From: a bacterium
GTDB taxonomy: Bacteria; Patescibacteriota; Microgenomatia; Daviesbacterales; UBA10151
Assembly: GCA_021786105.1 (NCBI GenBank)
Contig: JAJYNW010000009.1
Coordinates: 1-27,387 of the forward strand
Direction of reading: 5' to 3'
DNA length: 27,387 bases
Made by a program: the position numbers and the translations under genes. How positions within the stretch are numbered: position 1 is the first letter of the stretch; every line of letters begins with the position of its first letter. This document shows, piece by piece, positions 649-16,742 of this stretch. A model generated the notes under the pieces. It saw nothing but the letters and a program-made list of their open reading frames with translations. It was not told where the DNA came from and did no database searches.

Positions 649-2994
649 TTATACAGTTAATACTGGTAATCGGCTATTTAGCCTTAGTTTTCTTTGCTCT
701 CGTGAATCAGCTTTAACTGTTGCTTGACCATATAATTGTGTTAAAGCTATTTCCGGAGTTAACCCTCTAACCTCCATTTCCTTTAGCAAAAGCGAGAACT
801 GATCAAATTTGATAGCTTCTTCATATATTTTATTATCCTGCACGATAATTTCCTTATCCTCTGAAGTTGCTTGCCTCTCGACTTCACGCGCCCATGCATC
901 AGCATATTTTTCAGAATTTCGCTCTCTGACTATTGTTGTAAAAATACCTTCTTCTTCGTTATCTCCATACTTCATATAATTAAGACTGTGTGCCTGACCA
1001 AACTCATTCACGCCTATCCGTTTCATATACCTTTCATAATCCTGCCAATTATCACCCAACTCTCTCCCTAATTCTGGGTAGGATACTCTTACTATATATT
1101 TAAATAATTCCTGCCAATCTTGTGCTCTAGCTACTTTTTCAATTTCACCCTTATTCTGTGCGTCAGCAATTTTAATTACCGAAGAAATTACTTCTTCAAA
1201 TTGACGAATATACTCCGATTGCTCTTCCGTCTCCTCCTCGTGTTCTAATTCCAAATTCCTGTCTTCTGATTGAAGATAAATACTTTCTGTAACTTTACCT
1301 CCAATTAATCCTGCTCTCAATTCCGCAACACCTTGCAAATCTCCCAATACATGCAATTCAGACTCTTGTGGTCTTACTTTAATATTGCTTTTTAATAAAT
1401 CTACTGCTCCTGAACTATTAGAGACAGTATTTACAAAAACATCAGCTAGTCTAATTCTTTCAGCCCATTGTTTTAAGAATCGTAAACCCCCTCTGATTTT
1501 ATCCACTGCCTTATCGTAATCTTCTATACCTTGACCTACTTCAAAAGAATCTACTACCAATGCTGGTTTTTCTCCCGACACAGCCAAAACTATTCCTAAT
1601 TTAGCTATTAGATGATTACCCTCATTAATTCTAAAAAAGTTAAATCCAGGGTTCGAAAGCCATATCGGAACAGTCCAGGCATTTATTCCTGTGTACAAAT
1701 GATAAGCTGTACAGTCTCCTGTTAAATCTCCTAAGAACAAATCTTCTCTTCGTCTCGATATCAAAGAGTAATCAGAAGCATGAGTGTCCAATTTAAAAAC
1801 ATTACCTAATTGTGCTGCCATTTCTCTTTTAGCAGAATATCTTTCATTAAATCTTTGTTCCGCTGTCTCCAAAAGGACTTCATCTCTTAAAGCATTTTCA
1901 AAAACATCAAATCCGCCTTCAAGTACCACACCGTTTTCTTTAAAGAAATTTGCAATCTGCCCTCTTAAAACTCTTTGAGCTTTACCTGATTTTGTTTTCG
2001 ATACCTCAATCAACTTTCTAAATCTTGCTACAATATCCGGAAATTCTCCTATACCACTTAATATGTCTTGCTGAGCAACTCTTGCGGTATGGATTACTTC
2101 GTCTGATAAAAAACGACTCCGTTCAATAGTCAATTCCTCCATTGCCAAACCAACTTCTGCTTGAAGCGCTTTTGCAAAATAAGGTCGCACGCTTTCCATC
2201 TCTGCTTGGCCTAATAGAGCCATACTTTCTACAACCTCATCCGGGTTACCAATATTCCAAAACCTTTCCAAAGCAATTCCATATGTAGCACAAAGAGTTC
2301 TAAAATTTGGAGTATGTTCCCATAAAGCAATTTTAAAAGTTTTTTGGCTTTTAGTTGTTGCCAAATATGCTTCATGCAGTTCTTTAATACCTGGATCAAA
2401 ATTTGAATTAAAATCAGGACGCTCTCTCCATCCCAATCTTACTTCGGGATTACCCAATAATTCCTCTGCTTGAAGATGAATACTTCTTACTACATTCCTC
2501 TTTTCTTCATCAATATACTGACGATCATCACCCTCAAATTTCCCCACCACATTATTCCACACGGAATTAACTCTTTCTCTAGTTTCTGCACCAGGTATTA
2601 AATACGGTCCAACTATAGTACCAGCATTTAATAATGCCGATATTGTTCCGTAAGGATCTGAATTTTCATTCTGAGATGAAATGATATCTATATAATCTTG
2701 AGTTAGACGGTCTCTCCTTATTTTCTCAAGATCCACAACTTGTAAAACCTCTAAGGCACAATCCCGACGGTCTTGATCCCATTGCTTATCATCTCTACTT
2801 AAACCATTCAGTAACGATCTTACGAGGCTTCTAGTTTCTACTCCATCAAAACTAGCTATTTCGGCAGAAGCATTATCTAAAATAAGTTCTTTTTCGTCTG
2901 ATCGAGAGAGCAATGTTTGAAGAGTACGCTTATTTCCAAATATACCCTCCAAAAACACGGTCGGACGATCTTTCGGTTTATCTAATTCTGGCAT
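649..2994 (-). CDS. Large hypothetical protein (781 aa), helical N-terminus, DLFLGDLTGDC motif followed by a beta-rich domain
   Basis: Long ORF with ATG start; no family recognised with confidence. Confidence 0.85.
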   Translation of the reverse strand: MPELDKPKDRPTVFLEGIFGNKRTLQTLLSRSDEKELILDNASAEIASFDGVETRSLVRSLLNGLSRDDKQWDQDRRDCALEVLQVVDLEKIRRDRLTQDYIDIISSQNENSDPYGTISALLNAGTIVGPYLIPGAETRERVNSVWNNVVGKFEGDDRQYIDEEKRNVVRSIHLQAEELLGNPEVRLGWRERPDFNSNFDPGIKELHEAYLATTKSQKTFKIALWEHTPNFRTLCATYGIALERFWNIGNPDEVVESMALLGQAEMESVRPYFAKALQAEVGLAMEELTIERSRFLSDEVIHTARVAQQDILSGIGEFPDIVARFRKLIEVSKTKSGKAQRVLRGQIANFFKENGVVLEGGFDVFENALRDEVLLETAEQRFNERYSAKREMAAQLGNVFKLDTHASDYSLISRRREDLFLGDLTGDCTAYHLYTGINAWTVPIWLSNPGFNFFRINEGNHLIAKLGIVLAVSGEKPALVVDSFEVGQGIEDYDKAVDKIRGGLRFLKQWAERIRLADVFVNTVSNSSGAVDLLKSNIKVRPQESELHVLGDLQGVAELRAGLIGGKVTESIYLQSEDRNLELEHEEETEEQSEYIRQFEEVISSVIKIADAQNKGEIEKVARAQDWQELFKYIVRVSYPELGRELGDNWQDYERYMKRIGVNEFGQAHSLNYMKYGDNEEEGIFTTIVRERNSEKYADAWAREVERQATSEDKEIIVQDNKIYEEAIKFDQFSLLLKEMEVRGLTPEIALTQLYGQATVKADSREQRKLRLNSRLPVLTV

Positions 2995-2996
2995 AA

Positions 2997-3848
2997 TTAT
3001 TTTTGGTTACCCGCTGTTATAATTTTATCCCCATGCATTCGGAGATATAAAGCACCTCTTGTTAATCTATCCAAAGGTACTGGTGGAACTGCAATCAACT
3101 CAAGTAAAGAATGTTTTGTAAAAGGATCATTATAATCTGGAAAGCCGGATTCTGCTTCATCAATGCTATGTCTACTTAACTTATTCATCACTCTCTTGGC
3201 TACTGAAAAAGCTAGGTGGAAAGTATTATACCCGCCGTTAAATACTGCCCACAGACTACCTGCGTTTAAAGCAACGCTTAATGGATCAGCTCCACTATTT
3301 ACAGCTGTTGCAACAATAGTAGGAATCAGAGTTAGATCAAACATTCCTAGAAAGCCATAGCTAGTAAGAGTCGATAAATTATATCTTCCATTATTAAGGA
3401 TTTTTTCATTTTTCAGACACTGAATAGAACCTCTTATGAGAGCATCACGAAAATCCTCAATAAATAAATCATCAAACTTTCTTCTCCCATCATTTGATCT
3501 TGCTACCTTATTAGCCAAAGCCTGATCATTTATAGCTACTAACCAAATATCATCTTCTTTTTTAATATCAACTATTCCATCTCCATGCCAAAGTTCCATC
3601 CTCGGCAAATTTAAAAATTTTCCCACTCTTACAAAACCAATTTCATCATAATCAAGAGCTCTATCTTGAGGTTTTTGGGTAACTACAATATCACTTCTCA
3701 TATCACTTACCCTCATAAAGCCATCCGCAACAGGATCATTTAAATGCATTAAGTCATGCCCAACCCCTCTATAACCATCTAGGGAAATTCTATGGGCGTG
3801 TTTAAATTCATATCCTTTGGGTTCAACATCCAACATACGAGGAGGCAT
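2997..3848 (-). CDS. Hypothetical protein with two hydrophobic segments (possible membrane protein)
   Basis: ORF 2997..3914; ATG at 3848 (MPPRM) preferred because the upstream part overlaps the small ORF 3880-4050. Confidence 0.8.
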   Translation of the reverse strand: MPPRMLDVEPKGYEFKHAHRISLDGYRGVGHDLMHLNDPVADGFMRVSDMRSDIVVTQKPQDRALDYDEIGFVRVGKFLNLPRMELWHGDGIVDIKKEDDIWLVAINDQALANKVARSNDGRRKFDDLFIEDFRDALIRGSIQCLKNEKILNNGRYNLSTLTSYGFLGMFDLTLIPTIVATAVNSGADPLSVALNAGSLWAVFNGGYNTFHLAFSVAKRVMNKLSRHSIDEAESGFPDYNDPFTKHSLLELIAVPPVPLDRLTRGALYLRMHGDKIITAGNQK

Positions 3849-3879
3849 TATACTAAAACTATGAGCTTTTATCAATTTT

Positions 3880-4050
3880 TCACAGAGACCTAGGAGGATT
3901 AACCGGAGTTTCAATACTTATCCAAATATCATCCTTTATACACCAGTAAACAATTCTGTTATATTCCTTCAAATCTTTACCACTTTTACCATTATTAGTT
4001 AGGGCTTCTAACTTTTTAAACATTTCCTGTTTACATTTTAGACATTTCAT
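3880..4050 (-). CDS. Small zinc-ribbon-like protein (56 aa), not in ORF track
   Basis: MKCLKCKQEMFKKLEALTNNGKSGKDLKEYNRIVYWCIKDDIWISIETPVNPPRSL*; CxxC...CxxD; starts 2 nt after the upstream gene's stop. Confidence 0.75.
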   Translation of the reverse strand: MKCLKCKQEMFKKLEALTNNGKSGKDLKEYNRIVYWCIKDDIWISIETPVNPPRSL

Positions 4051-4052
4051 AA

Positions 4053-4493
4053 TTATTTATTATATTCCTTAAGTTTTTCTTTTAAATCATGTAATTTCAT
4101 AACTTTTATATTTATGCCTTTAACATAAATTGTCCCAAAATTATTTAAATCAATATTATGTTTTCGAAAATAATATTCATAAGAATCAAAAGAAATATCA
4201 AACGGTTTATTATCCAAACCTCTATATATTATTGAGTTTGCATGAATTGAATATGGAGTTTTAATTGGATTGAAATTTAATGTTTTAATTGAAGAAATTA
4301 TCCTCTCGCAATCTTCTTCTTTTACTATCAAATCTATATCATGTGGTTGTATTTCTTTATTTCCATACAAAAGATCAGCTGTACTTCCATAAACTAAATA
4401 ATCAATATTTTCATTGTTTAGCAAATTACAAACTTCAGATAATAATTGTAAAATTCCTTCTTTAGTAATTTCTTTCACAATCAAATTGTACAT
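4053..4493 (-). CDS. Nucleotidyltransferase family protein (pol-beta superfamily)
   Basis: YLVYGSTA...PHDIDLIV = hG[GS]x(n)DhD motif. Confidence 0.8.
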   Translation of the reverse strand: MYNLIVKEITKEGILQLLSEVCNLLNNENIDYLVYGSTADLLYGNKEIQPHDIDLIVKEEDCERIISSIKTLNFNPIKTPYSIHANSIIYRGLDNKPFDISFDSYEYYFRKHNIDLNNFGTIYVKGINIKVMKLHDLKEKLKEYNK

Positions 4494-4531
4494 CTTTTAA
4501 ATCCTAATTTCTGCCTGATATACTTACTGTG

Positions 4532-4798
4532 ATGAAATTAATATTAATTGATGGTGGGCCGGCTTCGGGGAAAAATACTCTTGGAGCTTGACTGGTAGAT
4601 AAATTTCATAATATTGGGAATAAAGTTATTCTTTTAGATTTAGATAACTACGTCGAGAAATTTAATCCCAAGTGGATTTGGGAGAATAAACAACAAGAAG
4701 AAAAAGATCAATTAAATGCCAGGATAAATTTTATTAAGGATATTAGTAAATATCTTGAAGATGATTTTATTGTTATTGCCATTGGTGAAAGGTTTTGA
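4532..4798 (+). pseudogene. Disrupted P-loop kinase (AAA_33/shikimate-kinase-like)
   Basis: MKLILIDGGPASGKNTLGA*LVDKFH...LLDLDNY...IVIAIGERF*; Walker A GGPASGKNT, in-frame TGA at 4589-4591, truncated at 4798. Confidence 0.75.
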
Positions 4799-4849
4799 AA
4801 AACAAGTTTACACCCGGAGGGTGATTTAGCTTTACACCTTTTCTCTATA

Positions 4850-4865
4850 TACCGCGTACGGGAGT
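4850..4865 (-). repeat. Exact 16-bp duplicate of tRNA-Glu 3' end (att-like direct repeat)
   Basis: TACCGCGTACGGGAGT is identical to 7531-7546. Confidence 0.9.
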
Positions 4866-4985
4866 AAAAGCAGATCCACTTGAAACTTCGTTTCAATATG
4901 GCTCCTCTTGTATTACTCGCTACGCTCGTAATCGAACAGCTTGCTTCTTGGAGCGAAGCGCGCTGTTCCTTCCTTTAGCCGTTCA

Positions 4986-5027
4986 AGATACAAAAATCCC
5001 CGAACAAGTCGGGGGTGTTTTGTATCT
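4986..5027. terminator. Intrinsic-terminator-like hairpin directly before GTACC
   Basis: AGATACAAAA-ATCCCCGA-acaag-TCGGGGGT-GTTTTGTATCT inverted repeat. Confidence 0.7.
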
Positions 5028-5140
5028 GTACCCCAAATGTTTGAGAATTGGAATCAAATTCTGGCTAATTTGAGATCATGGAAGATACTCTTAGAAAATA
5101 GCTTTAGCTCAAACTTAGCAATTAACTACAGCAAGGGATT
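5028..5140 (+). repeat. Cassette-head repeat copy 1 (113 bp)
   Basis: GTACCCCAAATGTTTGAGAATTGGAATCAA...TTAACTAC....AGGGATT; reads VPQMFENWNQILANLRSWKILLENSFSSNLAINY. Confidence 0.95.
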
Positions 5141-5185
5141 GGAACATTTCTGTATTTTATAAGGCTTTTATGCTTAAATAAGCAT

Positions 5186-5869
5186 ATGGCTGAAGCTAAA
5201 GATTTAGGAGAAATAATTGAAGCTTCTTATACTTTCATTGATCATAACAGAAGTCATATTCCATATGGAAAAGGGATAACAGATCAACTAGCTTATGATT
5301 ATAGTAATAGATATAAATTGCCCTTAAGAATTGCGGTATCTGCTTTTAAATACTTAGAAGGACTTAATATGACAAAAGCGGATTATCAGGATAAATATAT
5401 TTTAGACGCAGGTTCTGGTTTAGGAGATTTTAAAAGAGCTCTGAAGGGCATGGGAGTAAAGGCAGAAGTTGTAAACCTTGATGATGCAAAAACATGGGGT
5501 ATATATAACACCGATGTTGTAGGTAAAGTAGAAGCTTTGCCTTTTGCTGATAATTCCTTTGATGTTGCTGTTCTCAATTATGTATTTCCCTTTGTTATAG
5601 ACGAAACTATTGATCCTAGTTACGCAGCTAATCAATTGCGTGAATTAATAAGAGTCACTAAAAAGGGCGGAATTATTAGATACCGTCCATTGAGAATGTT
5701 TGATCCGCAAGTCAGAGAAGGCTCTCAAAGAGTAATGATTGAAGTGACAAAGAGAGCATTAGAGGCTTTAGCAGAAATTTACCAACAAAACCCTGATATG
5801 AAAGTTCAAATTACACGGGCAATTGGTGATGATAACACTTACGATGAAATCCTTGAAATAGTAAAATAG
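5186..5869 (+). CDS. Class I SAM-dependent methyltransferase
   Basis: ILDAGSGLG motif I; LPFADNSFD; RVTKKGG. Confidence 0.9.
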   Translation: MAEAKDLGEIIEASYTFIDHNRSHIPYGKGITDQLAYDYSNRYKLPLRIAVSAFKYLEGLNMTKADYQDKYILDAGSGLGDFKRALKGMGVKAEVVNLDDAKTWGIYNTDVVGKVEALPFADNSFDVAVLNYVFPFVIDETIDPSYAANQLRELIRVTKKGGIIRYRPLRMFDPQVREGSQRVMIEVTKRALEALAEIYQQNPDMKVQITRAIGDDNTYDEILEIVK

Positions 5870-5888
5870 CTTGTTACAACAATCTAAA

Positions 5889-5999
5889 GTACCCCAAATG
5901 TTTGAGAATTGGAATCAATTTCTATACGTTACGCACATGGAAGACCTTACTTAATGGAAGCTTCACCCCAGCTTTAGTATTTAACTACCTCTAGGGATT
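5889..5999 (+). repeat. Cassette-head repeat copy 2 (111 bp, 2-nt deletion)
   Basis: First 30 nt identical to copy 1; reads VPQMFENWNQFL/frameshift/LRTWKTLLNGSFTPALVFNYL*. Confidence 0.95.
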
Positions 6000-6003
6000 A
6001 GAG

Positions 6004-6684
6004 CTACTGAGAAAGCCTATTAATTACTATCTCGTCAGGAGAAAGACCTTCTGTCTCAGATAAATAAACAATTATTTCAGCCACTTTTTTAGGATCCATG
6101 TAAGAAGAAGTGTCGGGTGGTGTTTCAAGTGCGTCATACAAAGGTGTATTAATTCCTCCAGGATGAATGCTTAAAACTCTAATACCATGTTGTTTTGCTT
6201 CCAAACGAAGGCTTTGAGTAAAACCATTAAGCCCGAATTTAGTAGCAGCGTATAGAGTAAAATTAGCCCTACCTTCTTTTCCTACATTAGAATTTATATT
6301 AATAATAGTGCCATTTTTTTGTGAAACCATTAAAGAATAAAGTTTTTGCGTGAGAATCATTGGTGCTTTCAGATTTATTTCTAAAATTTTATTCAGTTGC
6401 TCAGGAGTATTTTTCTCAAATGGTTGGATATAAGTTATTCCGGCGTTATTAATCAAAATATCAACTTGGCCCAAACTATTAACTGCATCACTAGTTTTCT
6501 CAATTATTTCCTGTTTTGTTAAATCCCCTTCAATAATTTCAACATTCTCTTTATCCTGAAATTCTTGGAACCCTTCTGAGTTTAATCCATTTAAGACAAG
6601 TCTATAATTCTTTTCTAAGTACGCTCTAGCTAGTTCCTTTCCTAGTCCACTTGAAGCACCTGTAATTACAACTACTTTATTCAT
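6004..6684 (-). CDS. Short-chain dehydrogenase/reductase (SDR)
   Basis: TGASSGLG, NNAG, YAATK catalytic motif. Confidence 0.95.
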   Translation of the reverse strand: MNKVVVITGASSGLGKELARAYLEKNYRLVLNGLNSEGFQEFQDKENVEIIEGDLTKQEIIEKTSDAVNSLGQVDILINNAGITYIQPFEKNTPEQLNKILEINLKAPMILTQKLYSLMVSQKNGTIININSNVGKEGRANFTLYAATKFGLNGFTQSLRLEAKQHGIRVLSIHPGGINTPLYDALETPPDTSSYMDPKKVAEIIVYLSETEGLSPDEIVINRLSQ

Positions 6685-6784
6685 AAAATGGATTATCTAA
6701 GAAGATTATACACAAATATTTATTGGAACCAAAATAGCCTCAATTTTGAAGTATTAAACACATTGGGTATAAAATCTGAAGCTA

Positions 6785-6897
6785 GTACCCCAAATGTTTC
6801 AGAATTGGAATCAAATTCTGAGTTCATTAAGGACATGGAAGATTCTTTTAGAAAATAGCTTCACACCAAACTTGGCCGTTAACTACCTCTAGGGATT
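6785..6897 (+). repeat. Cassette-head repeat copy 3 (113 bp)
   Basis: Reads VPQMFQNWNQILSSLRTWKILLENSFTPNLAVNYL* (TAG 6890-6892). Confidence 0.95.
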
Positions 6898-6919
6898 AGA
6901 ACTGTGATATATTCATCTT

Positions 6920-7357
6920 ATGATTTACGTTGCCGGGGATAAACATGGTTTTAACGCCATTAAGATAGTTATCGATTATTTGGAAAAGCATGGTATTAAA
7001 TACGAGAATTTAGGCATACAAAACCAAAGCGAAGATATTAAGCTAGAAGATATGATCCCATCAGTGGTAAATATGGTTCTGGGAAACAAAAATAGTCAGG
7101 CAATTATTTCTTGCGGTACAGGAATTGGAGTTGAGGTAGGCGTTAATAAGTTTAGTGGAATTAGGGCTTGTCTTGCCACAAATGAAAAAGTTGCTGAATG
7201 GGCTAGAGTTTATGATAACTGCAATACTTTATGTCTTGTTGGTTGGGACTGCGACAAAAACGAAGTATTTAAAATCCTCGATGCTTGGTTTAGAGCAGAG
7301 TATGATGGTAGTAAAGATAGACTAAAAATGTTCGAAGAATTTAACAAATGGCATTAA
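6920..7357 (+). CDS. rpiB: RpiB/LacA/LacB family sugar-phosphate isomerase
   Basis: AGDKHG, CGTGIG, NKFSGIRA, N-x-N-x-L-C-L motifs. Confidence 0.85.
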   Translation: MIYVAGDKHGFNAIKIVIDYLEKHGIKYENLGIQNQSEDIKLEDMIPSVVNMVLGNKNSQAIISCGTGIGVEVGVNKFSGIRACLATNEKVAEWARVYDNCNTLCLVGWDCDKNEVFKILDAWFRAEYDGSKDRLKMFEEFNKWH

Positions 7358-7387
7358 TTCTACTTTAGAGCAAAACATCAGTCTAAA

Positions 7388-7529
7388 GTACCGCCAGCGG
7401 GATAATCACGTATCCGCCAAAGGCGGATTAACGAACAGTCTTGTCCATAACTTCGTCAGGACTACGCAGTCCTATCCCTTTCGGTGCAAAAACAAAAACG
7501 CTCCGGATGAACCAGAGCTTTTTTTGTTT
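7388..7529. repeat. Non-coding hairpin-rich module B2
   Basis: Starts GTACCGCCAGCGGGA (degenerate tRNA end), has ATCCGCC-aaa-GGCGGAT and AGGACT-acgc-AGTCCT palindromes, ends in a hairpin abutting the tRNA. Confidence 0.65.
7490..7529 (-). terminator. Terminator-like hairpin downstream of tRNA-Glu
   Basis: AAACAAAAA-c-GCTC..GAGC-TTTTTTTGTTT inverted repeat with A/T tracts. Confidence 0.65.
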
Positions 7530-7530
7530 G

Positions 7531-7604
7531 TACCGCGTACGGGAGTCGAACCCGTGATTTCTGGGATGAAAACCCAACGTCCTAGGCCACTAGACGAACG
7601 CGGC
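7531..7604 (-). tRNA. tRNA-Glu (TTC), CCA not encoded
   Basis: GCCGCGTTCGTCTAGTGGCCTAGGACGTTGGGTTTTCATCCCAGAAATCACGGGTTCGACTCCCGTACGCGGTA folds as a cloverleaf; anticodon TTC. Confidence 0.97.
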
Positions 7605-7614
7605 AAACCCTAAA

Positions 7615-7643
7615 ATTATACCGGAATTAGGCTCACTACTCAA
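7615..7643 (-). promoter_or_regulatory. Sigma70-type promoter of tRNA-Glu
   Basis: TTGAGT-N17-TATAAT, 10 nt upstream of the tRNA 5' end. Confidence 0.7.
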
Positions 7644-7660
7644 GACGAGCTTTCATTCAG

Positions 7661-7697
7661 CCCATAGTTTGATTTTCTACTCCAAATGTGATATATT
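7661..7697 (+). promoter_or_regulatory. Promoter with CCCATAGT motif abutting -35
   Basis: CCCATAGT-TTGATT-N17-TATATT-N7-ATG. Confidence 0.6.
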
Positions 7698-7704
7698 ATA
7701 AGAT

Positions 7705-7992
7705 ATGTTCGAAGGCAGACAAGAATTAGATCAGGAACAATATATTAACCGTTTCCGAGAGGCTCCTTATGGAGAAGCTTTAGAAATGCCTTTATCCACT
7801 CTTACGCCTACCCAAACCCCCGATGGACAATACTCTTTATCCAAGGGTGCTATCCAGGCTTGTTACGACAAAAGCAGTATCTTAGTTGTACACGGGAATC
7901 ATCGGTATTTTGATGCACTTAGTACAGTAGGTTCTGAAAAGCAAGCACTTATTTTAACTGAGAAGGTTAAAAATCCATACCTCGATTATTAA
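7705..7992 (+). CDS. Small hypothetical protein, possible ParB/Srx-like fold
   Basis: LSTLTPTQ...ILVVHGNHRY resembles the ParB-N 'DGxHR' motif. Confidence 0.65.
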   Translation: MFEGRQELDQEQYINRFREAPYGEALEMPLSTLTPTQTPDGQYSLSKGAIQACYDKSSILVVHGNHRYFDALSTVGSEKQALILTEKVKNPYLDY

Positions 7993-8056
7993 ATACTAAT
8001 TTATTACCTGGCGAAGCAAGCAAACCTAATGAATTATTTGGAAGCAGGCTTCTTTT

Positions 8057-8554
8057 TCAAGGCTGACGGCATTTCAATGGACGAAAGGTTGCAGTCGAAG
8101 CTATAGTAGGCTCTGTCCAATCAGCATTTACTTTATCTAAACTTACCCAATCTATCTCTTCAGGGCTCGAATCCGATTCATTTGTCCCATACTCATTATG
8201 AATTCCATTAGAAGATACTCTTGCTAACTCCCGCAACCGACCGCCATTAGGATACCTTCCACTACCTCTAACGTGATGATCCTTTTTTAAGGTAATTCTT
8301 CCATCTACGCTAATCCTTTCCCAATAACCTTCTTCCACCTCAGCACAAATCCTTCTCCTGGGGTCTTGAACAAATTTTATAGTTTGTCTTTGCAATTCCG
8401 GCAAACGTACTACACCATTCCCGGAACCATTGGAAGCAGTCTCCTCTAACCCACAGGGGTCAATTATGCCATCAACAACACCTTTTTCTAAACGAACATC
8501 CGGCGTTACGGGGTACGAAACAAGCTGCGCTTTAAAACTTTCAATCTCTAGCAT
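8057..8554 (-). CDS. Hypothetical protein
   Basis: 165-aa ORF filling the gap; TTGACA-N17-TAATAC promoter-like sequence upstream. Confidence 0.65.
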   Translation of the reverse strand: MLEIESFKAQLVSYPVTPDVRLEKGVVDGIIDPCGLEETASNGSGNGVVRLPELQRQTIKFVQDPRRRICAEVEEGYWERISVDGRITLKKDHHVRGSGRYPNGGRLRELARVSSNGIHNEYGTNESDSSPEEIDWVSLDKVNADWTEPTIASTATFRPLKCRQP

Positions 8555-8592
8555 AATAGAGTATTACTATAAACCCTTATACCTGTCAATAC

Positions 8593-8997
8593 TTAGTTAA
8601 TAAACCCATGACTCTTCAACCAGGGGAAAATAGTTCTTTGAGCAATTACTGAAAGATTCTTTTTATCTGAATTGGTATCAAAATAGCCTACTTCCACCAC
8701 CTCTGAGGAAGGTTTTGGAGTACCAACTAATTTCCCTTCATACATCCTGATACGGACCAGAGTATCTTCCTTCCCGTGCGCCACATCCTCAAATTCCGTC
8801 AAGAACTTCAGGGAACTCTCATCAATATCACAATCAATCTCTTCCTTAACTTCCCTTTCTAATGCTTCAGTATCCGACTCCCCTTCTTCCGGTTTTCCGC
8901 CAAGAGTATAGAAAACATCCGGCTGTTTGCCGGACCTGACTTGCAGCATTTTCTTATCTTTAAACACTGCCAAAGCCACTTTTTGGATAATTTTCAT
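8593..8997 (-). CDS. NUDIX hydrolase
   Basis: GGKPEEGESDTEALEREVKEEI Nudix box. Confidence 0.92.
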   Translation of the reverse strand: MKIIQKVALAVFKDKKMLQVRSGKQPDVFYTLGGKPEEGESDTEALEREVKEEIDCDIDESSLKFLTEFEDVAHGKEDTLVRIRMYEGKLVGTPKPSSEVVEVGYFDTNSDKKNLSVIAQRTIFPWLKSHGFIN

Positions 8998-9026
8998 AAA
9001 AGTAAGTATATGCTATACTTTTCGGG

Positions 9027-9929
9027 ATGACTACACAAGCGGAATCCCCTCAGCTAATCACCTCTGCCAAATTAGGCATTATTGGTTACGGTATTGTGGG
9101 TCAGGCTTTAGCTTATGGATTTTCCCAACCAGACGTCAAAGACAAATACGAAATCAAATACTATGACAAATACAAAGATACCGCCTCTTTGGAAGAAGTA
9201 GTTTCTGGTTCTGAATTCATTTTCATCTGCCTCCCCACCCCCATGAAAGAAGATGAATCAGGTATCGATCTTTCCATCATTAAGGAAATGGTCAAGGAAA
9301 TTACCAAATACACCGATAACACTGACAAAATCATTGTGATTAAATCAACCGTCGTCCCGGGCACCACTGCTTCTCTGGAGACAAAACACCCAAAAAGCAA
9401 TTTTGCCATGAACCCGGAATTTTTAACTGAGGCAAATTATCTAGAGGATTTCCTCAATGCTGACCGAACTATCATTGGGGCAAACAATGATTTAACTTCC
9501 CGGAGACTGGTGGCTTTATACCGCCAAAGGTTTCCGCACATGAAGATTTTTCAAACCGATTCCACCACAGCTGAAATGGTTAAATATATGGCTAATTCAT
9601 TCCTGGCCACCAAAGTGATTTTTGCCAATGAGATGTTTGCTTTATGCCAGGCTTTAGGCATTAAATATGAAGAAGTTAAAAACATGGTGGTAGCAGACAA
9701 GAGAATCTTTGATTCGCATATGGACGTCACCACAGCCAGAGGGTTTGGGGGGAAGTGTTTTCCTAAAGATGTGGTGGCTTTAATCGGCCGGGCTAAGGAT
9801 TTAGGCGTTGAGCCAAAACTATTAGAAACTACCTGGTCAATAAACAAAAAGATCCGGCAAGTCCGCGACTGGGAAGAAATCCCTTTTGCCGTGACGAGCG
9901 CAGCGAGTCATCCTGAGCGAACGAAGTGA
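9027..9929 (+). CDS. UDP-glucose/GDP-mannose dehydrogenase family protein (short form lacking C-terminal domain)
   Basis: GIIGYGIVG, CLPTP, IKSTV, NPEFL, GFGGKCFPKD. Confidence 0.92.
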   Translation: MTTQAESPQLITSAKLGIIGYGIVGQALAYGFSQPDVKDKYEIKYYDKYKDTASLEEVVSGSEFIFICLPTPMKEDESGIDLSIIKEMVKEITKYTDNTDKIIVIKSTVVPGTTASLETKHPKSNFAMNPEFLTEANYLEDFLNADRTIIGANNDLTSRRLVALYRQRFPHMKIFQTDSTTAEMVKYMANSFLATKVIFANEMFALCQALGIKYEEVKNMVVADKRIFDSHMDVTTARGFGGKCFPKDVVALIGRAKDLGVEPKLLETTWSINKKIRQVRDWEEIPFAVTSAASHPERTK

Positions 9930-9942
9930 GTCGAAGGATCTC
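9907..9942 (+). repeat. Solo REP-like palindrome (GTCAT...GATCTC)
   Basis: GTCATCCTGAGCGAACGAAGTGAGTCGAAGGATCTC; same family as the repeats flanking the GIY-YIG gene; lies between convergent genes. Confidence 0.7.
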
Positions 9943-10300
9943 AGGAGGTTATATTTTTTATTAATTCGATTTTTGGTTCCTTAGGATTTTCAACAAAATC
10001 AACTCCCACAAAATCTAATCTGTATTCTTTATCGCCCCAATTAATTTTTTGGGTATAAAACTTAGCAGTTTTTAAAAGGGCCTTAATTTTCCAAGGAGTC
10101 ATGGATTCTACCGGTAAGCCATAATCGTGAGACCAGCGTGTTTTCACCTCTACAAAAACTAAAGTATTCCCTTCTCTGGCCACAATATCAATTTCCCCGC
10201 CCCTGATCCGATAATTCCTTTCCAATATTTTATAACCCTGTTTTTTAAGATGTTCACAGGCCAAATTCTCACCCTGGTTACCGATTGTTAGAGTAGACAT
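9941..10300 (-). CDS. yraN: YraN (UPF0102) family endonuclease
   Basis: G..GE..A...L...GY.ILERN....GEIDIVA...LVFVEVKTR; ATG at 10300 overlaps the upstream TAA. Confidence 0.92.
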   Translation of the reverse strand: MSTLTIGNQGENLACEHLKKQGYKILERNYRIRGGEIDIVAREGNTLVFVEVKTRWSHDYGLPVESMTPWKIKALLKTAKFYTQKINWGDKEYRLDFVGVDFVENPKEPKIELIKNITS

Positions 10301-10761
10301 TAATTGTTCGTGGAGGAGACCCAAAAATTACCATTAGTAAACCTTCCTAATAAAATTTGCGCCAACTTATCCGGATCTCCGGAGAAACTGCCTTCCTCAT
10401 TATTTCCCATGGGAAAAACCCAATTATTATCTCTCATTTCTTTTATTTCCAAAAGTAAAGACCGATCTGTAGGATATTCAGGATTCTCAAAATAAAGGCA
10501 TTCTTGTCCTGCTGTAGACTCTGCAGACTTCTTACTAATACCGGGTGCACAAATAAAGGAAATTACTCCATTCATACTGATTTTACTAAACCTAGGCAGC
10601 TTCCAATTTAAAGATTCAAGCATATCTATAAGTTTTGGATTAAAACTATCCATTCGCCCTTGGCTCCTTAAAGATGACAAATATAAAACAGTATTAGCAA
10701 TTCCGCAATCTCCGTCTATATTAAAAGCGCAATTTGATGCACACTTATTTTCAATACCCAT
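10300..10761 (-). CDS. Cys-containing hypothetical protein inserted between rnhB and yraN
   Basis: 153-aa ORF, own promoter TTGCAT-N17-TAAAAT, TAATG overlap with yraN. Confidence 0.75.
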   Translation of the reverse strand: MGIENKCASNCAFNIDGDCGIANTVLYLSSLRSQGRMDSFNPKLIDMLESLNWKLPRFSKISMNGVISFICAPGISKKSAESTAGQECLYFENPEYPTDRSLLLEIKEMRDNNWVFPMGNNEEGSFSGDPDKLAQILLGRFTNGNFWVSSTNN

Positions 10762-10816
10762 ATATAATAAAAAAGATTTTAATACAACCGGGCAATAAAT
10801 GCAAGTTGCTATAGGC

Positions 10817-11434
10817 TTAAATTAAAAATCTTTGTAGGTCAAAGGATTTTCGGTGAATCCTGGCTAAGCCATACTTTTTAATTGCTTCCTGGTGCTGCTT
10901 AGTTCCGTAACCCTTGTGTTTGGCAAAACCATATTGAGGGTATTTTTGGTGCAGTTTTTTCATTAACTTATCACGGTAAACTTTGGCAATAATTGAAGCA
11001 GCAGACACGGAAGCGCAAATCTTATCCCCGTCTTTAACCGGCTTTTGCCTTTTCCTATTAAGGTGATTGACATAAAAAGCATCTATCAAAACAAAATCAG
11101 CTTTCTTGGGAAGAAGCTTTAGAGCCTTTCTAAAAGCCATCTGGGTAGCCTTGCCGATGCCAACCTTATTAATCGCAGTCACGCTAATTTCCGCAATCGA
11201 CCAGACTAGAGCTTGCTCTTTAATCAGCTCCGCCAGTTTTTCCCTTTGCCTGGGTTTTAAAAGTTTTGAATCAGCAATTCCTTCTGGTAATACAATATCT
11301 TGGGGAAACACCACCGCACCTACCACAACCGGCCCGGCAAAACAGCCTCTGCCAACTTCATCAAGACCACAAATGTGAGTATAACCGGAATTCCAAAGTT
11401 TTCTCTCAATATCGAGAGTAGGAGTAATCATCAA
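10817..11434 (-). CDS. rnhB: Ribonuclease HII
   Basis: [31 protein letters not shown]. Confidence 0.96.
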
Positions 11435-11745
11435 ACTCTAACAGCGCTTTTACCAACCAAATCTCTTAAATAATATAATTTTGATCTTCTGATTTTTCCG
11501 ACCTTTTTCTTAACCTCCACCTTAACGATGGCTCTGGCATCCAGCGGCCAGGTTCTCTCCACACCAACTCCGCCAGCCCCGATTTTCCGAACAGTAAAGG
11601 TTTGGTTTTCACCGCGGCCTCGCAGCCGGATTAAAATCCCTTCAAAAACCTGAATACGGGTTTTGGCGCCTTCCACCACTCTGCTGTGGACTCTAACCGT
11701 ATCTCCGACATGTATATCTTGTTCACCAATTTTTGCTGAAATCAT
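11431..11745 (-). CDS. rplS: 50S ribosomal protein L19
   Basis: [38 protein letters not shown]. Confidence 0.97.
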
Positions 11746-11803
11746 TAGGAAATATTAACATAAATCAAGCTCAATATTCAAGAAGATGCTCGTAGTGGAC
11801 ATG

Positions 11804-14800
11804 TTAGACTATTTTAACAGACCCTTCACCCAGGATTTGATCAATTTCCTGAGCCAAAGAAGAATCAGGATTAACGGAAAACGGCAAGTTCATCCTTCTT
11901 TCCTCATTACCGCTGTGCAAAAGCAAAACTACCGGCATACTGCCCGGAAACTTCCTTAAAGTCCGGTTAATATTTTGCAGCACTGTCACACCGGTGCCGG
12001 CCGACACATAAATTTCCACTGAAGAATCGTATTGCGGCATATCATCAACTACGTTTTCCGGGTCAAATAAATTAATTTTCTCCACAATTACTGACAATTC
12101 TTCCTCCCTTTTTTCTACCCTTCCCGCAATTAAGACCACATTATCAGGAATCAAAAATTCTTTGCAGGTTTCATAAGTTTTCGGAAATACCACCATCTCC
12201 AAAGAAGAAACATTATCAGAAATCTTAATAAAAGCCATTTCCGCGGCAGTTCTTTTGGTTAAAACCTTCTTCACCGAAGATATTACTCCGCCTATTTTTA
12301 AGCTCTTCCCGATGTGCTCATCACCTAACTCAGATAACTTTGTTGAAACATATCTAGTTAATTTTTGTAAAGTCGCTAAATACGGCGGCTCATGCAGATA
12401 AAAGCCCAGCAGATCTTTTTCAAATACCAGCAGTTGCTCCAGAGGCATCTCGGCAACCTCGGGCAGCTTAATTTCTATTTTCCCTAAATCCTCTTCACCG
12501 TCAAACAAGGATACTTGGCCGGACAGCCTATTTTTATTTTGTTTGTGAGACTCCTCAAGACATTGATCCAAAATCAGGAGTTGAGCAGCCCGATTACCCA
12601 AGTGATCCAAAGCTCCGGCCTTAATTAAGCTCTCCAAGGTTTTCCTATTTACCAACCGGTTATCAACCCGGGAACAAAGATCAGCCAATGACACAAATTC
12701 ACCATCTTTTCTGGCCGAGATTATTGATTCAATAGCCCCAATTCCAACATTCTTAATGGCAGACATTCCAAACCGGATACCCTGATTTAACCGGATATCG
12801 AAGTTATTAGTTAATTGCCTTTCCAGCTCCTCTTTACTTAATTCTTTAAGCTTCTCCAGCGTAAAACCAACCTTGGATTTATTCACATCCGGCGGCAAAA
12901 CTACTATTCCCAGACGCTTACACTCCTCAATCGCCGCGGCAATTTTATCCGCATCCCCTGATTCAGCCGTCATCACTGCCGCCATAAACTCCACCGGAAA
13001 ATTGGCTTTCATGTAAGCTGTTTGATAAGCAACCATAGCGTATGACGCAGCGTGCGCTTTATTAAAACCATAGGCAGCAAAGGGAGCAATCATGCCAAAC
13101 AACTCTTCGGCTTTTTCTTTTTTCATACCGTTTTTAATACATCCTTCGATAAACTTACCTTTTTGCTTAGCCATCTCCAACGGGTTTTTCTTACCCATGG
13201 CTTTCCTAAACTTATCCGCCTCTTCCCAGGAGTATCCGGCAATATTAATGGCAGTCAAAAGCACGTCATCTTGATAAACCAATAACCCGCGGGAAGCTTC
13301 TGTATAATCCTTCATTCGGGGATCAAAAAATTTCACCTTTTTGGGGTTATGTTTTCTGGCAATATATTCCGGGATCACCGCCATCGGGCCGGGACGGTAT
13401 AAAGCCACCATGGCCTGGATATCAAAAATGCTGGCTGGTTTTAGCTCTGTCACATACCTGGTCATTCCCGAACCCTCAAGCTGGAATATTCCCATGGTTT
13501 CCCCTTTGGCCAACAGCTCAAAGGCTTTTTTGTCATCAAGCGGAATTCTATTTAAATCAACGCTTATTCTTCTATTTTCTTTAACAAACTCCACAGCTTT
13601 ACCAAGAATCGACAAATTCCTGATACCCAAAAGATCCATTTTGACCAAACCAATTCCTCCGTATTCATCTGCCAAAGAGAACATGTCATATTGCGAGACC
13701 AATTTGTCTCCCTTAGATTCTCTTTGTAGGGGGGCAAAATTAGTAATATCCTCAGGGGCAATAACAATGCCGGCTGCATGCACCGAAGCATGACGGACTG
13801 TACCTTCAATTTTGACAGCCAAATCCAATAATTTCTTAACCTGGGGATCATTTTTATATAAAGCTGACAACTCCGGAACCTCTTTAATACTGGTCCCTAA
13901 AGGTTTGTGAAACCCCTGAAAGGGCGGCGGCACCAGTTTGGCAATCCTATCCACCTCTCCGTAAGACAAACCCATTACCCGGCCCACGTCCCGAATTGCC
14001 GCCCGGCCCATCATGGTTCCATAAGTGACAATGTGGGCCACCTTATCCTCACCATATTTATCAATCACATATTTAATCACTTCATCCCTCCTATCATCAG
14101 CAATATCCGCATCAATATCAGGCAGAGACGGCCGGTAAATCGTCAAAAACCTCTCAAAAGGCAGCAGATAATCAAGCGGGTTTAAATTAGTTACCCCTAG
14201 GCAATACAAAACCAATGAAGCTGCGGCCGAACCCCGGGTATTGGTGATAATCCCCCTTTCGTGAGCCCATTCCATAAAATCGGAAACCACCAGAAAATAA
14301 TCAGCATAGTTTTTCTTCTCAATTACCCCCAGTTCGTATTCCAATCTTTCTTTGGCTTTCTCGATCATCTCAAATTTGTCTTTTGCTCTTTCATAAGTTA
14401 ACTCCCTTAGGTACTCCATGGAAGATTTACCCGGCGGGGTATCAAAAATAGGAAAGTGGGCTACCCCTAAAGTAATCTGCAAATCCACCATATCGGCAAT
14501 TTTGACAGTATTTTCTACGGCCTCCGGCAAGTCGCTAAAATCTTCTAGCATTTGCTCTGGGGATTTTAGGAAATAATCAGGAGTATCAATCATTCGAAGC
14601 CTCTTGGTTTCCGAAAGGAGTTTACCCATTTGCACGCACAGCAGGGCATCTTGCGCTTCGGCATCTTCTTTTTTGACATAATGACAATCATTGGTGGCCA
14701 CAACCGGAACACTCAATCTGGGGGACATCTCTTTAATTACCTGGATAGTTTGGTTTTGGATATCTAAAAGCTCCTGCATGTCTTTTTTAACCGCCTCGTC

Positions 14801-15364
14801 TGTAGCTGCTTCCAATGATTGCTGGTAGGGATGTTTTTGCGCCTCCAGAAAAAAATTACCTTCACCAAAAATCTCCTGGTAGTTCTTAATCACCTCTTCT
14901 GCCTTTTTCATATCCTTACTATTAAAAGACCTGATAAATTCCCCGGCCGGACAGCCTGATAAAGCAATCAAACCCTCATGGAATTCTTTCAGAAGTGCCT
15001 TATCTACCCGGGGCCGGTAATAGTAACCGTCTCTGTGAGCAATAGTAACCAGTTTCATTAAATTCAAATATCCCTGATAATTTTTAGCCAAAACTGTTAA
15101 ATGGTATGGCTCAGAATCAACTTTTCCTTCTTTATCTTTGTGAGATCTTTTGGCCACATACATCTCTACCCCGATAATCGGCTTTACTCCGGCCTCTTTA
15201 CAGGCTTTATAAAATTCTATTGCCCCATACATCACCCCGTGATCAGTAATACCAACCGCCTCCATGCCTAAATTCTTGGCGGTTTTAACCATCTCTGGGA
15301 TTTTAGATAACCCATCAAGCAGGGAATATTGGGTATGGTTGTGCAGGTGGACAAATTTAGGCAT
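11804..15364 (-). CDS. dnaE: DNA polymerase III alpha subunit
   Basis: PHP HLHNHTQYSLLDG, RGSAA, PDIDAD, YGFNKAHA, OB-fold. Confidence 0.98.
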   Translation of the reverse strand: MPKFVHLHNHTQYSLLDGLSKIPEMVKTAKNLGMEAVGITDHGVMYGAIEFYKACKEAGVKPIIGVEMYVAKRSHKDKEGKVDSEPYHLTVLAKNYQGYLNLMKLVTIAHRDGYYYRPRVDKALLKEFHEGLIALSGCPAGEFIRSFNSKDMKKAEEVIKNYQEIFGEGNFFLEAQKHPYQQSLEAATDEAVKKDMQELLDIQNQTIQVIKEMSPRLSVPVVATNDCHYVKKEDAEAQDALLCVQMGKLLSETKRLRMIDTPDYFLKSPEQMLEDFSDLPEAVENTVKIADMVDLQITLGVAHFPIFDTPPGKSSMEYLRELTYERAKDKFEMIEKAKERLEYELGVIEKKNYADYFLVVSDFMEWAHERGIITNTRGSAAASLVLYCLGVTNLNPLDYLLPFERFLTIYRPSLPDIDADIADDRRDEVIKYVIDKYGEDKVAHIVTYGTMMGRAAIRDVGRVMGLSYGEVDRIAKLVPPPFQGFHKPLGTSIKEVPELSALYKNDPQVKKLLDLAVKIEGTVRHASVHAAGIVIAPEDITNFAPLQRESKGDKLVSQYDMFSLADEYGGIGLVKMDLLGIRNLSILGKAVEFVKENRRISVDLNRIPLDDKKAFELLAKGETMGIFQLEGSGMTRYVTELKPASIFDIQAMVALYRPGPMAVIPEYIARKHNPKKVKFFDPRMKDYTEASRGLLVYQDDVLLTAINIAGYSWEEADKFRKAMGKKNPLEMAKQKGKFIEGCIKNGMKKEKAEELFGMIAPFAAYGFNKAHAASYAMVAYQTAYMKANFPVEFMAAVMTAESGDADKIAAAIEECKRLGIVVLPPDVNKSKVGFTLEKLKELSKEELERQLTNNFDIRLNQGIRFGMSAIKNVGIGAIESIISARKDGEFVSLADLCSRVDNRLVNRKTLESLIKAGALDHLGNRAAQLLILDQCLEESHKQNKNRLSGQVSLFDGEEDLGKIEIKLPEVAEMPLEQLLVFEKDLLGFYLHEPPYLATLQKLTRYVSTKLSELGDEHIGKSLKIGGVISSVKKVLTKRTAAEMAFIKISDNVSSLEMVVFPKTYETCKEFLIPDNVVLIAGRVEKREEELSVIVEKINLFDPENVVDDMPQYDSSVEIYVSAGTGVTVLQNINRTLRKFPGSMPVVLLLHSGNEERRMNLPFSVNPDSSLAQEIDQILGEGSVKIV

Positions 15365-15419
15365 AGGTAATAACTTGGATATTCTACCAGGCTAATGGGT
15401 GACTATTTCAAGAGGCAAA

Positions 15420-16742
15420 TCAGCCTTTAAGAAGCTTTTCCAATATTGGTTTTAATTTAGCACTATCTGCCTTACCTTTAGATAGCTTCATCACACCGCC
15501 TATTAACACCTGTAACGCTGCTTCCTTGCCCGATTTATAATCAGCCACTGCCTTAGGATTTTCACTAATTGATTGCTCAGCCAGTTTCTCAAGTTCTCCT
15601 TCATCTGCTACTATTCCCACTTTTTTACCTTTTATTTCTTCTATTATTTGTGTAGGCAAAATTTCCTCTATATTTATTTTTTTGTTAATAATATGGTTGG
15701 CAATTTGAACTGCCTCCACTCCATGCTCTTTACCATGTTTAACAGCTTGCTCAAAATAATTGGCCAACTCTTTTGACTCTGAGAGTATTTTTGCCTGAGC
15801 TTCTGTCAATTTATACTCTCTGACAAATCTCTTCTGCTTATCCCATGGCAACTCAGACAAGCTTTCTCTAATTTTTCCAACCTCATCCGGCTTTATTTGC
15901 AGTTCCGGCAGGTCCGGTTCGGGAAAATAGCGGTAATCGTGAGCCTCTTCTTTGCTCCTTTGTAAAAATGTACACTTTTTGTCATCATTCCAGCCCCGGG
16001 TTTCCTGTGATATTTTTCCCCCCTTTTCCAATGCGGCAATTTGGCGTTTAATTTCATATTCGATCGCCGCCACCATAAACCTAAATGAATTAATATTCTT
16101 TAACTCAACTCTGTAATTTGGCAATTCTGTCTGGCCGACAGGACGAACCGAAACATTTGCTTCCAGTCTCATGTCACCGCGCTCCATATCAGCATTAGAA
16201 ACTCCTAAATAACGGAAAATCTGCTGCAGTTTTTTGGCGTAATCCCGGACCGATTCTACATCCTTAAAATCCGGTTCAGTCACTATCTCCACCAATGGTA
16301 CTCCTGACCGGTTAAAATCAATCAACGTCTCATTACCCCGATGAGTCAGCTTACCAGTATCCTCTTCCTGATGTGCCCTATTAATTCTAATTGTGACTTC
16401 CTGTCCACTATTGTCTGTAACCTGTAACCTACCCCCTACACAAAGCGGCCATCTATATTGGGAAATCTGGTAACCTTTGGGTAAATCAGGATAAAAATAA
16501 TTTTTTCTCTCAAATCTGGAAACTTCAGAAATAGAACAATTTAAAGCCAAACCAATTTTGATACAATCCTCAATTGCTTCCTTATTAATATATGGCAAAG
16601 CTCCTGGCAATCCCAAACAAACCGGGCAAGTGTGAGTATTCGGTTCCTTGCCAAAATAATCAGCACTGCACTTACAAAACATTTTGCTTTTGGTATTCAG
16701 TTCAACATGGACTTCCAGGCCCATCACTGGCTCATAATTCAT
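15420..16742 (-). CDS. gatB: Asp/Glu-tRNA amidotransferase subunit B
   Basis: [35 protein letters not shown]; ATG at 16742 overlaps the gatA stop (ATGA). Confidence 0.97.

Follow-up and report, generated by a model that had tools for sequence, protein, structure and literature searches.

Arrays of small, mostly single-gene and promoter-poor cassettes, each with a conserved site and often with no adjacent recombinase, are familiar from integrons and from clusters of attC sites lacking integron integrases (CALINs), and the staphylococcal cassette chromosomes (SCC/SCCmec) are stacked in tandem and moved by large serine recombinases (LSRs; CcrAB). To judge from the part of the literature consulted, the closest case to the one considered here is that of the ssrA-specific islands of Dehalococcoides, in which a CcrB-like LSR, DsiB, lies at the island edge and the 3′ end of its gene always overlaps attL and enters the complementary strand of the tRNA-like ssrA gene (McMurdie et al., 2011, PMC3146451). 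According to the same account, these islands are inserted in the T-loop region, occur in tandem and in many cases have no integration module, and DsiB is perhaps fully functional only on the circular element. In the myxophage Mx8, the IntP/IntX integrase gene contains attP and integration gives the gene a new 3′ end, the altered integrase being reported as still active with changed properties (Tojo et al., 1996; Magrini et al., 1999, both as presented in PMC6070905). In this study we analyzed a 27,387-nucleotide stretch of DNA from a member of the Patescibacteriota (Microgenomatia; Daviesbacterales; UBA10151), consisting of positions 1 to 27,387 of contig JAJYNW010000009.1 (C9) of the 26-contig, 1.04-Mb and 92% complete assembly GCA_021786105.1, and hereafter called the window. 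It contains three repeats of ~118–129 nt, each heading one single-gene cassette, in tandem behind a tRNA-Glu gene. We consider it likely that the repeat represents the P′ side of attP together with the severed C-terminal tail of the recombinase from a family of tRNA-targeting LSR elements, here termed M-type.

The repeat was tied to a recombinase by complete elements, which were reached through repeat copies having no tRNA within 1.5 kb. The element of genome G354 (~6.8 kb) carries the repeat at its left end (nhmmer E 5.8e-12) and encodes an LSR of 515 aa at a tRNA-Glu(UUC), and those of G419 (~8.2 kb) and G235 (~5.3 kb), both at a tRNA-Glu(CUC), carry the repeat at the distal end (E 1.7e-9 and 1.9e-10) and encode LSRs of 520 and 537 aa, respectively. 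A scan of 185,579 species' genomes with an alignment of the M-type LSRs added a single locus, L143, in which the repeat (E 6.1e-13) is located 3.9 kb upstream of an LSR gene whose product is 63% identical to that of G419 and whose contig ends two codons past the junction. In all four of these complete or near-complete elements the repeat is tRNA-distal and the LSR lies at the tRNA-Glu end. The Pfam Resolvase, Recombinase and zinc ribbon domains were identified in the LSRs of G354, G419 and G235, which are 55–56% identical to each other and only 23–31% identical to the LSRs of the window's own genome and to those of a second clade (T-type, see below). In each of the four elements the LSR frame reads leucine and then Val-Pro at the sequence GTA CCN, which is also the frame that gives VPQM in the repeat; the chance expectation for such agreement is one in three per element. 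An earlier note on this DNA, made from the window alone, had placed the crossover inside the 3′ end of a recombinase gene. The LSR opposite the repeat in four elements, the shared frame at GTA CCN and a short database open reading frame (ORF), P0002, all bear this out, with the crossover itself probably located at the GTACC core.

The search proposed in the earlier note, for the repeat-encoded peptide at the C-termini of large recombinases, would by itself have failed. A word-indexed protein search with a natural stretch of 46 aa holding the tail gave no match among proteins of 82–2000 aa or of 25–81 aa, and a profile search of 1.84 billion representatives identified only eight short ORFs (31–118 aa), none of them a recombinase. 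P0002, one of these eight, however, joins an LSR C-terminus to the tail: its residues 15–48 align to LSR residues 456–489 (56% identity, E 1e-10) and the tail follows directly. P0002 is a natural database ORF with the un-recombined arrangement, in which 34 C-terminal residues of the LSR are contiguous with the tail. We attribute the lack of the tail in long database proteins to the fact that databases and assemblies hold the integrated, tail-swapped form of the gene. In every integrated copy of the repeat, the frame meets a stop within 0–32 codons 5′ of the core, and the open frame around the tail is at most 88 aa at the 39 places listed for 96 genomes of the family and at most 96 aa at the 28 places listed for 401 genomes of the class.

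These searches also bear on whether the peptide could be the displaced C-terminus of a host or cargo gene that was hit at its 3′ end, rather than that of a recombinase. There are two instances that would be consistent with this: at locus L022 in G005, an epimerase-like gene upstream shares the phase of the tail frame, with a TAG between the two, and in the window the frame of an RpiB-type cargo gene is in phase with the next core. However, such in-phase cases occur at the rate expected by chance (one in three), and the G005 case is probably a chance event. The upstream neighbors differ at every locus, no protein of 82–2000 aa shares words with the tail, the tail profile matches no long protein, and the short open frames around the tail (≤96 aa at the listed places) likewise argue against this origin, which we regard as extremely improbable.

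The three window copies are the only significant copies of the repeat in the 1.04-Mb assembly, with copies 78–81% identical to copy 3. Searches by DNA similarity identified the repeat in 16 of the 95 other family genomes at 68–81% identity, and a profile of the 35 tail residues identified it in 29 of the 96 family genomes and in 21 of the 401 sampled class genomes, four other families included. The repeat is found 0.3–2.3 kb from tRNA-Glu, tRNA-Arg or tRNA-Lys, in a single fixed orientation and with varied single-gene cargo.

The translations quoted in the earlier note for the three window copies proved correct. Copy 3 (6785–6913, plus strand) has an intact tail frame at 6785–6892, consisting of 35 codons and a TAG, which is followed by a conserved box, GGGATTAGAAC. 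Copy 1 (5028–5156, plus) comprises the GTACC core, a putative P′ half-site of ~28 nt and the tail frame, but has lost its stop codon (TAG to AAG) and extends to 5162, for a total of 44 codons. Copy 2 (5889–6005, plus) contains a 2-nt deletion that shifts the frame after NWNQFL. The reading of QSK into VP across the core (at 5880 and 7379) and the open frame from 7530 through the tRNA antisense strand (27 codons) were also confirmed.

That the repeat is conserved as protein, as the note had maintained, is supported by the ratio of nonsynonymous to synonymous differences (pN/pS) among copies, which shows codon-like substitutions in frame 0 beyond chance. In a first test with 12 copies found by DNA similarity, pN/pS was 0.41 in frame 0 and 0.63–1.46 in the five other frames of both strands. 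With 16 copies found in the same manner it was 0.445 in frame 0, compared with 0.88 and 1.28 in the other plus-strand frames, and none of 300 column shuffles reached the frame-0 value (mean 0.83, standard deviation 0.13). Four rows representing same-place duplicates or a truncated copy were removed for these tests, and gap-rich rows were excluded per test. For all 38 copies the frame-0 value was 0.57, and none of 300 shuffles was as low. Copies 1 and 3 of the window have 20 differences, distributed 7/4/9 over the three codon positions (pN/pS 0.34), and among copies leucine and arginine codons alternate between families (TTR/CTN and AGR/CGN).

We also considered that the repeat might not be coding at all and serve only in recombination or regulation (as an attC-like or promoter-bearing site), its codon pattern being a by-product of constraint on the DNA. 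The ~11 nt past the stop codon (GGGATTAGAAC in copy 3) are conserved as strongly as the codons, which coding cannot account for, and the most invariant residues of the tail (NWN) overlap TGGAAYC, a probable binding motif for a protein. In one G084 copy, nothing but the first 19 and last 22 nt of the repeat has been retained and the middle is replaced, and many copies contain frameshifts or stops. However, the codon signal persists outside the 5′ site: with the first 30 nt excluded (nt 31–105), pN/pS was 0.536 and again none of 300 shuffles was as low. A constraint on DNA would also not lead one to expect the switching between leucine and arginine codon families, nor that the frame of the repeat is that of the LSR in four of four complete elements and that P0002 joins the two. 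An Rfam search of 4000–8500 at E ≤ 1 assigned no family to the repeats, finding the tRNA and two weak sub-threshold matches in the block immediately upstream of copy 1; one of these, to the rimP leader (4951–5052; 26 bits against a gathering score of 47), reaches 25 nt into copy 1. A purely non-coding role consequently appears improbable to us.

An alternative offered in the earlier note was that the repeat encodes a free-standing peptide of 32 aa (6794–6892, from an internal ATG), acting for example as a directionality factor or as a small regulator for each cassette. The purifying selection on the frame would suit such a peptide, as would the prediction of the isolated 35-aa tail as a single long helix (residues 2–26, mean pLDDT [predicted local distance difference test] of 80), although this predicted helix says little about the tail when it is attached to an enzyme of 500 aa. 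ATG is the commonest codon at codon 4, being present in 24 of the 34 copies that have this column (38 examined), with GTG in two more. On the other side, a whole tRNA-Arg-linked subfamily is without the ATG yet has kept the rest of the peptide, and three of the four LSR-linked copies also lack it (ATT, GTT, and ATT). The invariant recombination core makes up the 9 nt before the ATG, which contain nothing resembling a Shine-Dalgarno sequence, and the DNA 5′ of the core differs at every copy, which is not consistent with a common promoter. Codons 1–3 (V-P-Q) are conserved like the remainder, and the constraint on the frame is explained by its continuity with the LSR without a separate gene. A stand-alone peptide thus seems very unlikely.

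The assignment of half-sites rests on comparison of the repeat with the tRNA end. The tRNA-Glu(UUC) gene of the window (7530–7604, minus strand) was identified by ARAGORN and matches RF00005 with 59.3 bits; the plus-strand reading of its 3′ end (GTACCGCGTACGGGAGTCGAACC) would represent the B′ half-site. Counting from the G of GTACC, this end contains TCGAACC (the T-loop) at positions 17–23, and the repeat contains TGGAACC or TGGAATC at 22–28, within one mismatch in all 38 copies. The T-arm motif T(C/G)GAACC would therefore be mimicked in the first ~28 nt of the repeat, moved outward by 5 bp. In serine integrase half-sites, the motif for the zinc ribbon domain is described as 5 bp nearer the center in attB than in attP (Rutherford et al., 2013, PMC3783163). 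The sites of Listeria A118-type integrases are alike in this 5-bp offset, which here separates the motif in the tRNA (B′) from that in the repeat (P′). In the model phages, by contrast, attP is located outside of the integrase gene.

Based on these observations we propose that, as long as the element is free and circular, its LSR gene extends past the crossover core GTACC and terminates ~35 codons further on, within the present repeat. When the element integrates at the 3′ end of tRNA-Glu (or of tRNA-Arg or tRNA-Lys), this gene would be cut, so that the integrated LSR would keep its body and gain ~26–35 residues from the antisense strand of the tRNA, with the original tail remaining at the tRNA-distal end. 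The repeat would accordingly be composed of the P′ half-site, the next ~75 nt of tail codons, and a last ~20 nt forming a DNA box that spans the stop codon. The cassettes of the window would be LSR-less units, each composed of a repeat and one cargo gene and placed in tandem behind tRNA-Glu, and two of the three may also keep a few terminal LSR codons. These codons correspond to two right-end remnants, x-arm 1 (5876–5888, plus; ACAACAATCTAAA) and x-arm 2 (7375–7387, plus; ACATCAGTCTAAA), each of which precedes a GTACC and ends such that TCTAAA is immediately 5′ of the next core; 5876–5893 and 7375–7392 are 89% identical. In our reading the x-arms are the terminal codons of a recombinase gene that has been lost, and hence a putative P arm. 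The sequence TCTAAA(A)C lies within the final codons of the G419 recombinase and is also found close to the cassette ends in relatives. The view in the earlier note that the cassettes are deletion derivatives retaining only attP is supported insofar as little beyond attP has been kept; they may be either such derivatives or hitch-hikers that were moved in trans.

There are several points that weigh against our interpretation or limit it. No M-type LSR was found in this assembly, where the best tblastn match (31% identity) is the LSR at a tRNA-Gly, nor in any of the 96 family genomes (best match 38%), though 29 of these carry the repeat, and the link between the repeat and an LSR thus rests on four elements from other families. 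As a consequence of this absence, the cassettes would be remnants or would depend on visiting elements, and the frameshift of copy 2 and the stop loss of copy 1 fit decay. The four LSRs that were found at tRNA-Glu within the family belong to another clade (T-type, 25–28% identical to the M-type), and in the two of these four elements whose far end was within reach it carries a different module and not the repeat. A free circular form with the joined gene is absent from the protein databases searched. The constraint on the tail frame is moderate only (pN/pS 0.45–0.57), and many copies are broken: in a census of the 38 copies by match columns, with insertions ignored, 15 keep both frame and stop, four have an inner or lost stop and 19 are gapped. 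The 5-bp shift of the T-arm motif was noticed post hoc and its agreement with serine integrase sites is supportive, but not a test. The x-arm motif abuts GTACC in the window but is 9–13 nt away from it in G419 and L029, and the window junctions are on this account not canonical attP sites. LSRs normally recombine attP with attB only, and the tandem P/P′ junctions of the window are unexplained by this rule.

The window island as a whole is arranged as follows. Every block begins with GTACC in the interval bounded by the tRNA-Glu gene and the 16 nt that duplicate its 3′ end. The outermost block, T-unit A (block A; 4849–5027, plus), is made up of this exact 16-nt copy (4850–4865), a body of ~120 nt, and a bidirectional terminator-like hairpin (4986–5027), and it abuts repeat copy 1. 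The first cargo gene encodes a SAM (S-adenosylmethionine)-dependent methyltransferase of 227 aa (5186–5869, plus; PF08241, E 3.6e-10). The second, which follows copy 2 and has the opposite orientation, encodes a short-chain dehydrogenase of 226 aa (6004–6684, minus; PF00106, E 5.2e-52), and the third encodes an RpiB/LacAB-type sugar-phosphate isomerase of 145 aa (6920–7357, plus; PF02502, E 1.2e-26). The last block, T-unit E (block E; 7388–7529, plus), contains 16 nt that resemble a tRNA 3′ end but are diverged, a body rich in hairpins, and a terminator hairpin directly next to tRNA-Glu. A comparison of the contigs of four sequencing runs with 4000–8500 gave one weak joint, from 4880 to 6784 (one contig, with a 31-nt side), and loose ends within the first 32–42 nt of the repeat, neither of which is informative as to mobility; the sequencing runs listed for this DNA included none of RNA. 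Just left of the island are two large ORFs without a Pfam match, both on the minus strand (649–2994, 781 aa, and 2997–3914, 305 aa), which are adjoined by a stretch of low G+C content (0.29; 3500–5000), and a nucleotidyltransferase-like ORF of 146 aa is located at 4053–4493.

The arrangement of T-unit A (tRNA fragment, body, hairpin, then repeat) is also found in L143 and is implied by a second database sequence, P0001, and we infer that it represents the B (left) arm of the outermost junction. A bidirectional terminator-like hairpin is present upstream of the outermost repeat in block A, G419 and L143, and would be the displaced native flank of the tRNA, again the B arm. More generally, T-units consist of a 13–18-nt copy of the adjoining tRNA's own 3′ end (to the T-loop), a hairpin-rich body and usually a terminator that abuts the tRNA. 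Besides the two in the window, they were observed at C4:23491–23626 and C8:10018–10103 of the same assembly and at loci L079, L081, L085, L088 and L019, immediately downstream of tRNA genes for Glu, Gln, Lys, Tyr, Arg and Cys, often standing alone with a precise boundary. In relatives, matches to the body of block E immediately follow the genes for tRNA-Glu, Gln, Lys, Tyr and Arg. A T-unit also heads the distal end of T-type serine recombinase elements in G084 and G062, that of G062 being 75% identical over 97 nt (E 1.7e-11) to the T-unit on C4. A guide-RNA interpretation of the T-unit was set aside once T-units had been found at the distal end of LSR elements. The exact 16-nt copy at the outer limit of the island repeats the tRNA 3′ end directly, as is typical of tyrosine integrase islands, but it does not imply a tyrosine integrase here, because a T-unit also heads the serine recombinase elements of G084 and G062. 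A tyrosine integrase or integron was rejected as there is no such gene nearby, the two PF00589 genes of this genome being on other contigs.

Genes for LSRs that read into the antisense strand of a tRNA are not confined to the M-type. Both LSR genes of the window's own genome finish inside a tRNA antisense strand, one (C14:63161–64714, plus) in that of tRNA-Gly(GCC) and the other (C17:56740–58512, minus) in that of tRNA-Asn; the two mark a further pair of integrated elements. When the 27 residues from the tRNA-Glu antisense strand were used as a query against the six-frame translations of the 96 family genomes, four long frames (519–577 aa) were identified, all being the T-type LSRs, which end in VPRTGVEPV or close variants. 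In the two of their elements whose far end was within reach, the distal module comprises 17 nt copied from the tRNA end together with a body and a terminator, and so is of the same kind as blocks A and E. Additional LSR frames enter tRNA-Gly, Phe and Leu, as well as tRNA-Glu in another frame. Since both the family-wide tRNA-Glu frames and the genome's own LSRs do so, an LSR gene that crosses the junction is the rule in this lineage. At L138 (G056:C1:16106–17671), the gene for an LSR from a separate clade reads into the tRNA-Glu 3′ end as well, but in another frame (F and then GTAYGSRTRD), which indicates that several recombinase lineages use tRNA-Glu independently.

Cargo and repeat structure vary among the relatives. 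No recombinase was identified within several kb of the repeat in the eight larger loci inspected, and the cargo of these is diverse (HAD hydrolase, GrpB, GNAT, zeta-toxin-like kinase, C39 peptidase, and others). The repeat-adjacent cargo of L031 (G082:C88, 8157–11408) includes a zeta-toxin-like kinase, a C39-type peptidase and a Fic protein, and other loci carry GrpB, GNAT, HAD and MUG113/T5orf172 proteins. The box spanning the stop codon (AACTACCATTAG GGATTAGAAC; 6890–6902 in the window, and correspondingly placed in every copy) has persisted in even the most distant families, and a -10-like TATAAT and the start of the cargo gene often follow it by 10–40 nt; the box may belong to the promoter of the cargo. 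In L023/L028 (G085:C3), the putative binding motif of one repeat is split by 25 inserted nt, placed exactly between GAATTG and GAACC, and the repeat is otherwise well kept. In L022/L078 (G005:C9), the first ~80 nt of the repeat are directly followed by a T-unit and tRNA-Arg, with no cassette between them. The above-mentioned copy in G084 (L129; C10, reverse strand, 3415–3488) is a 74-nt mini repeat in which the tail codons are swapped for an unrelated stretch with a tRNA-T-arm-like sequence, AGTCGAACC. A tRNA-like or tmRNA-like fold of the repeat was dropped after inspection by eye, and ARAGORN found nothing there.

The exchange of tails raises the question as to whether they make two different enzymes. 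In a scenario that we consider rather doubtful, and in which the switch is purely conjectural, the circular form with its amphipathic-helix tail from the repeat would integrate, and the integrated form with its Pro/Arg-rich tail from the tRNA antisense strand would be locked or re-specified, such that directionality would be set by recombination itself without a separate factor; the LSR-less cassettes would be shuffled in trans, in an integron-like capture at the tRNA genes of ultra-small Patescibacteria. The natural pair of LSR isoforms would make it possible to test whether a serine integrase can be controlled through recombination itself, and serine integrases are of practical interest for genome engineering. 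The M-type family would explain recombinase-less cassette arrays behind tRNAs in ultra-small genomes as debris or satellites of site-spanning LSR elements, and a tRNA-mimicking half-site followed by a conserved severed tail provides a signature for finding such elements and their targets. It also carries a warning, as searches of protein databases will miss such tails when normally only the integrated, tail-swapped form is sequenced.

Among the titles listed by full-text searches on serine recombinases or integrases, none describes such an arrangement in Patescibacteria. The cassettes of the window resemble those of integrons, but there is no IntI-type tyrosine recombinase or attI by the array, and no recombinase domain of any kind was found with Pfam among the 19 ORFs of 649–18094. 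Unlike attC, which is a folded hairpin, the site here is composed of a tRNA-mimicking half-site and a gene fragment, and both its sequence (68–81% identity across genera) and its codon pattern are conserved. Compared with SCC/SCCmec, the anchor is a tRNA gene and not rlmH. Mx8, as it is presented in the source consulted, provides a precedent for a tail swap with a functional consequence; it differs in being a single phage with a tyrosine recombinase, for which that source describes neither a cassette family nor arrays of severed tails. With respect to the Dehalococcoides islands, we saw no DsiA-like partner or six-gene module, and the targets are tRNA-Glu, Arg and Lys instead of ssrA. The overlapping C-terminal part of DsiB is described as divergent in length and sequence, with no conserved severed tail reported in the portion of that account consulted (PMC3146451), whereas the elements described here are represented by single-gene cassettes of 0.6–0.9 kb and by a recognizable severed tail of 35 codons that is under purifying selection in several families.

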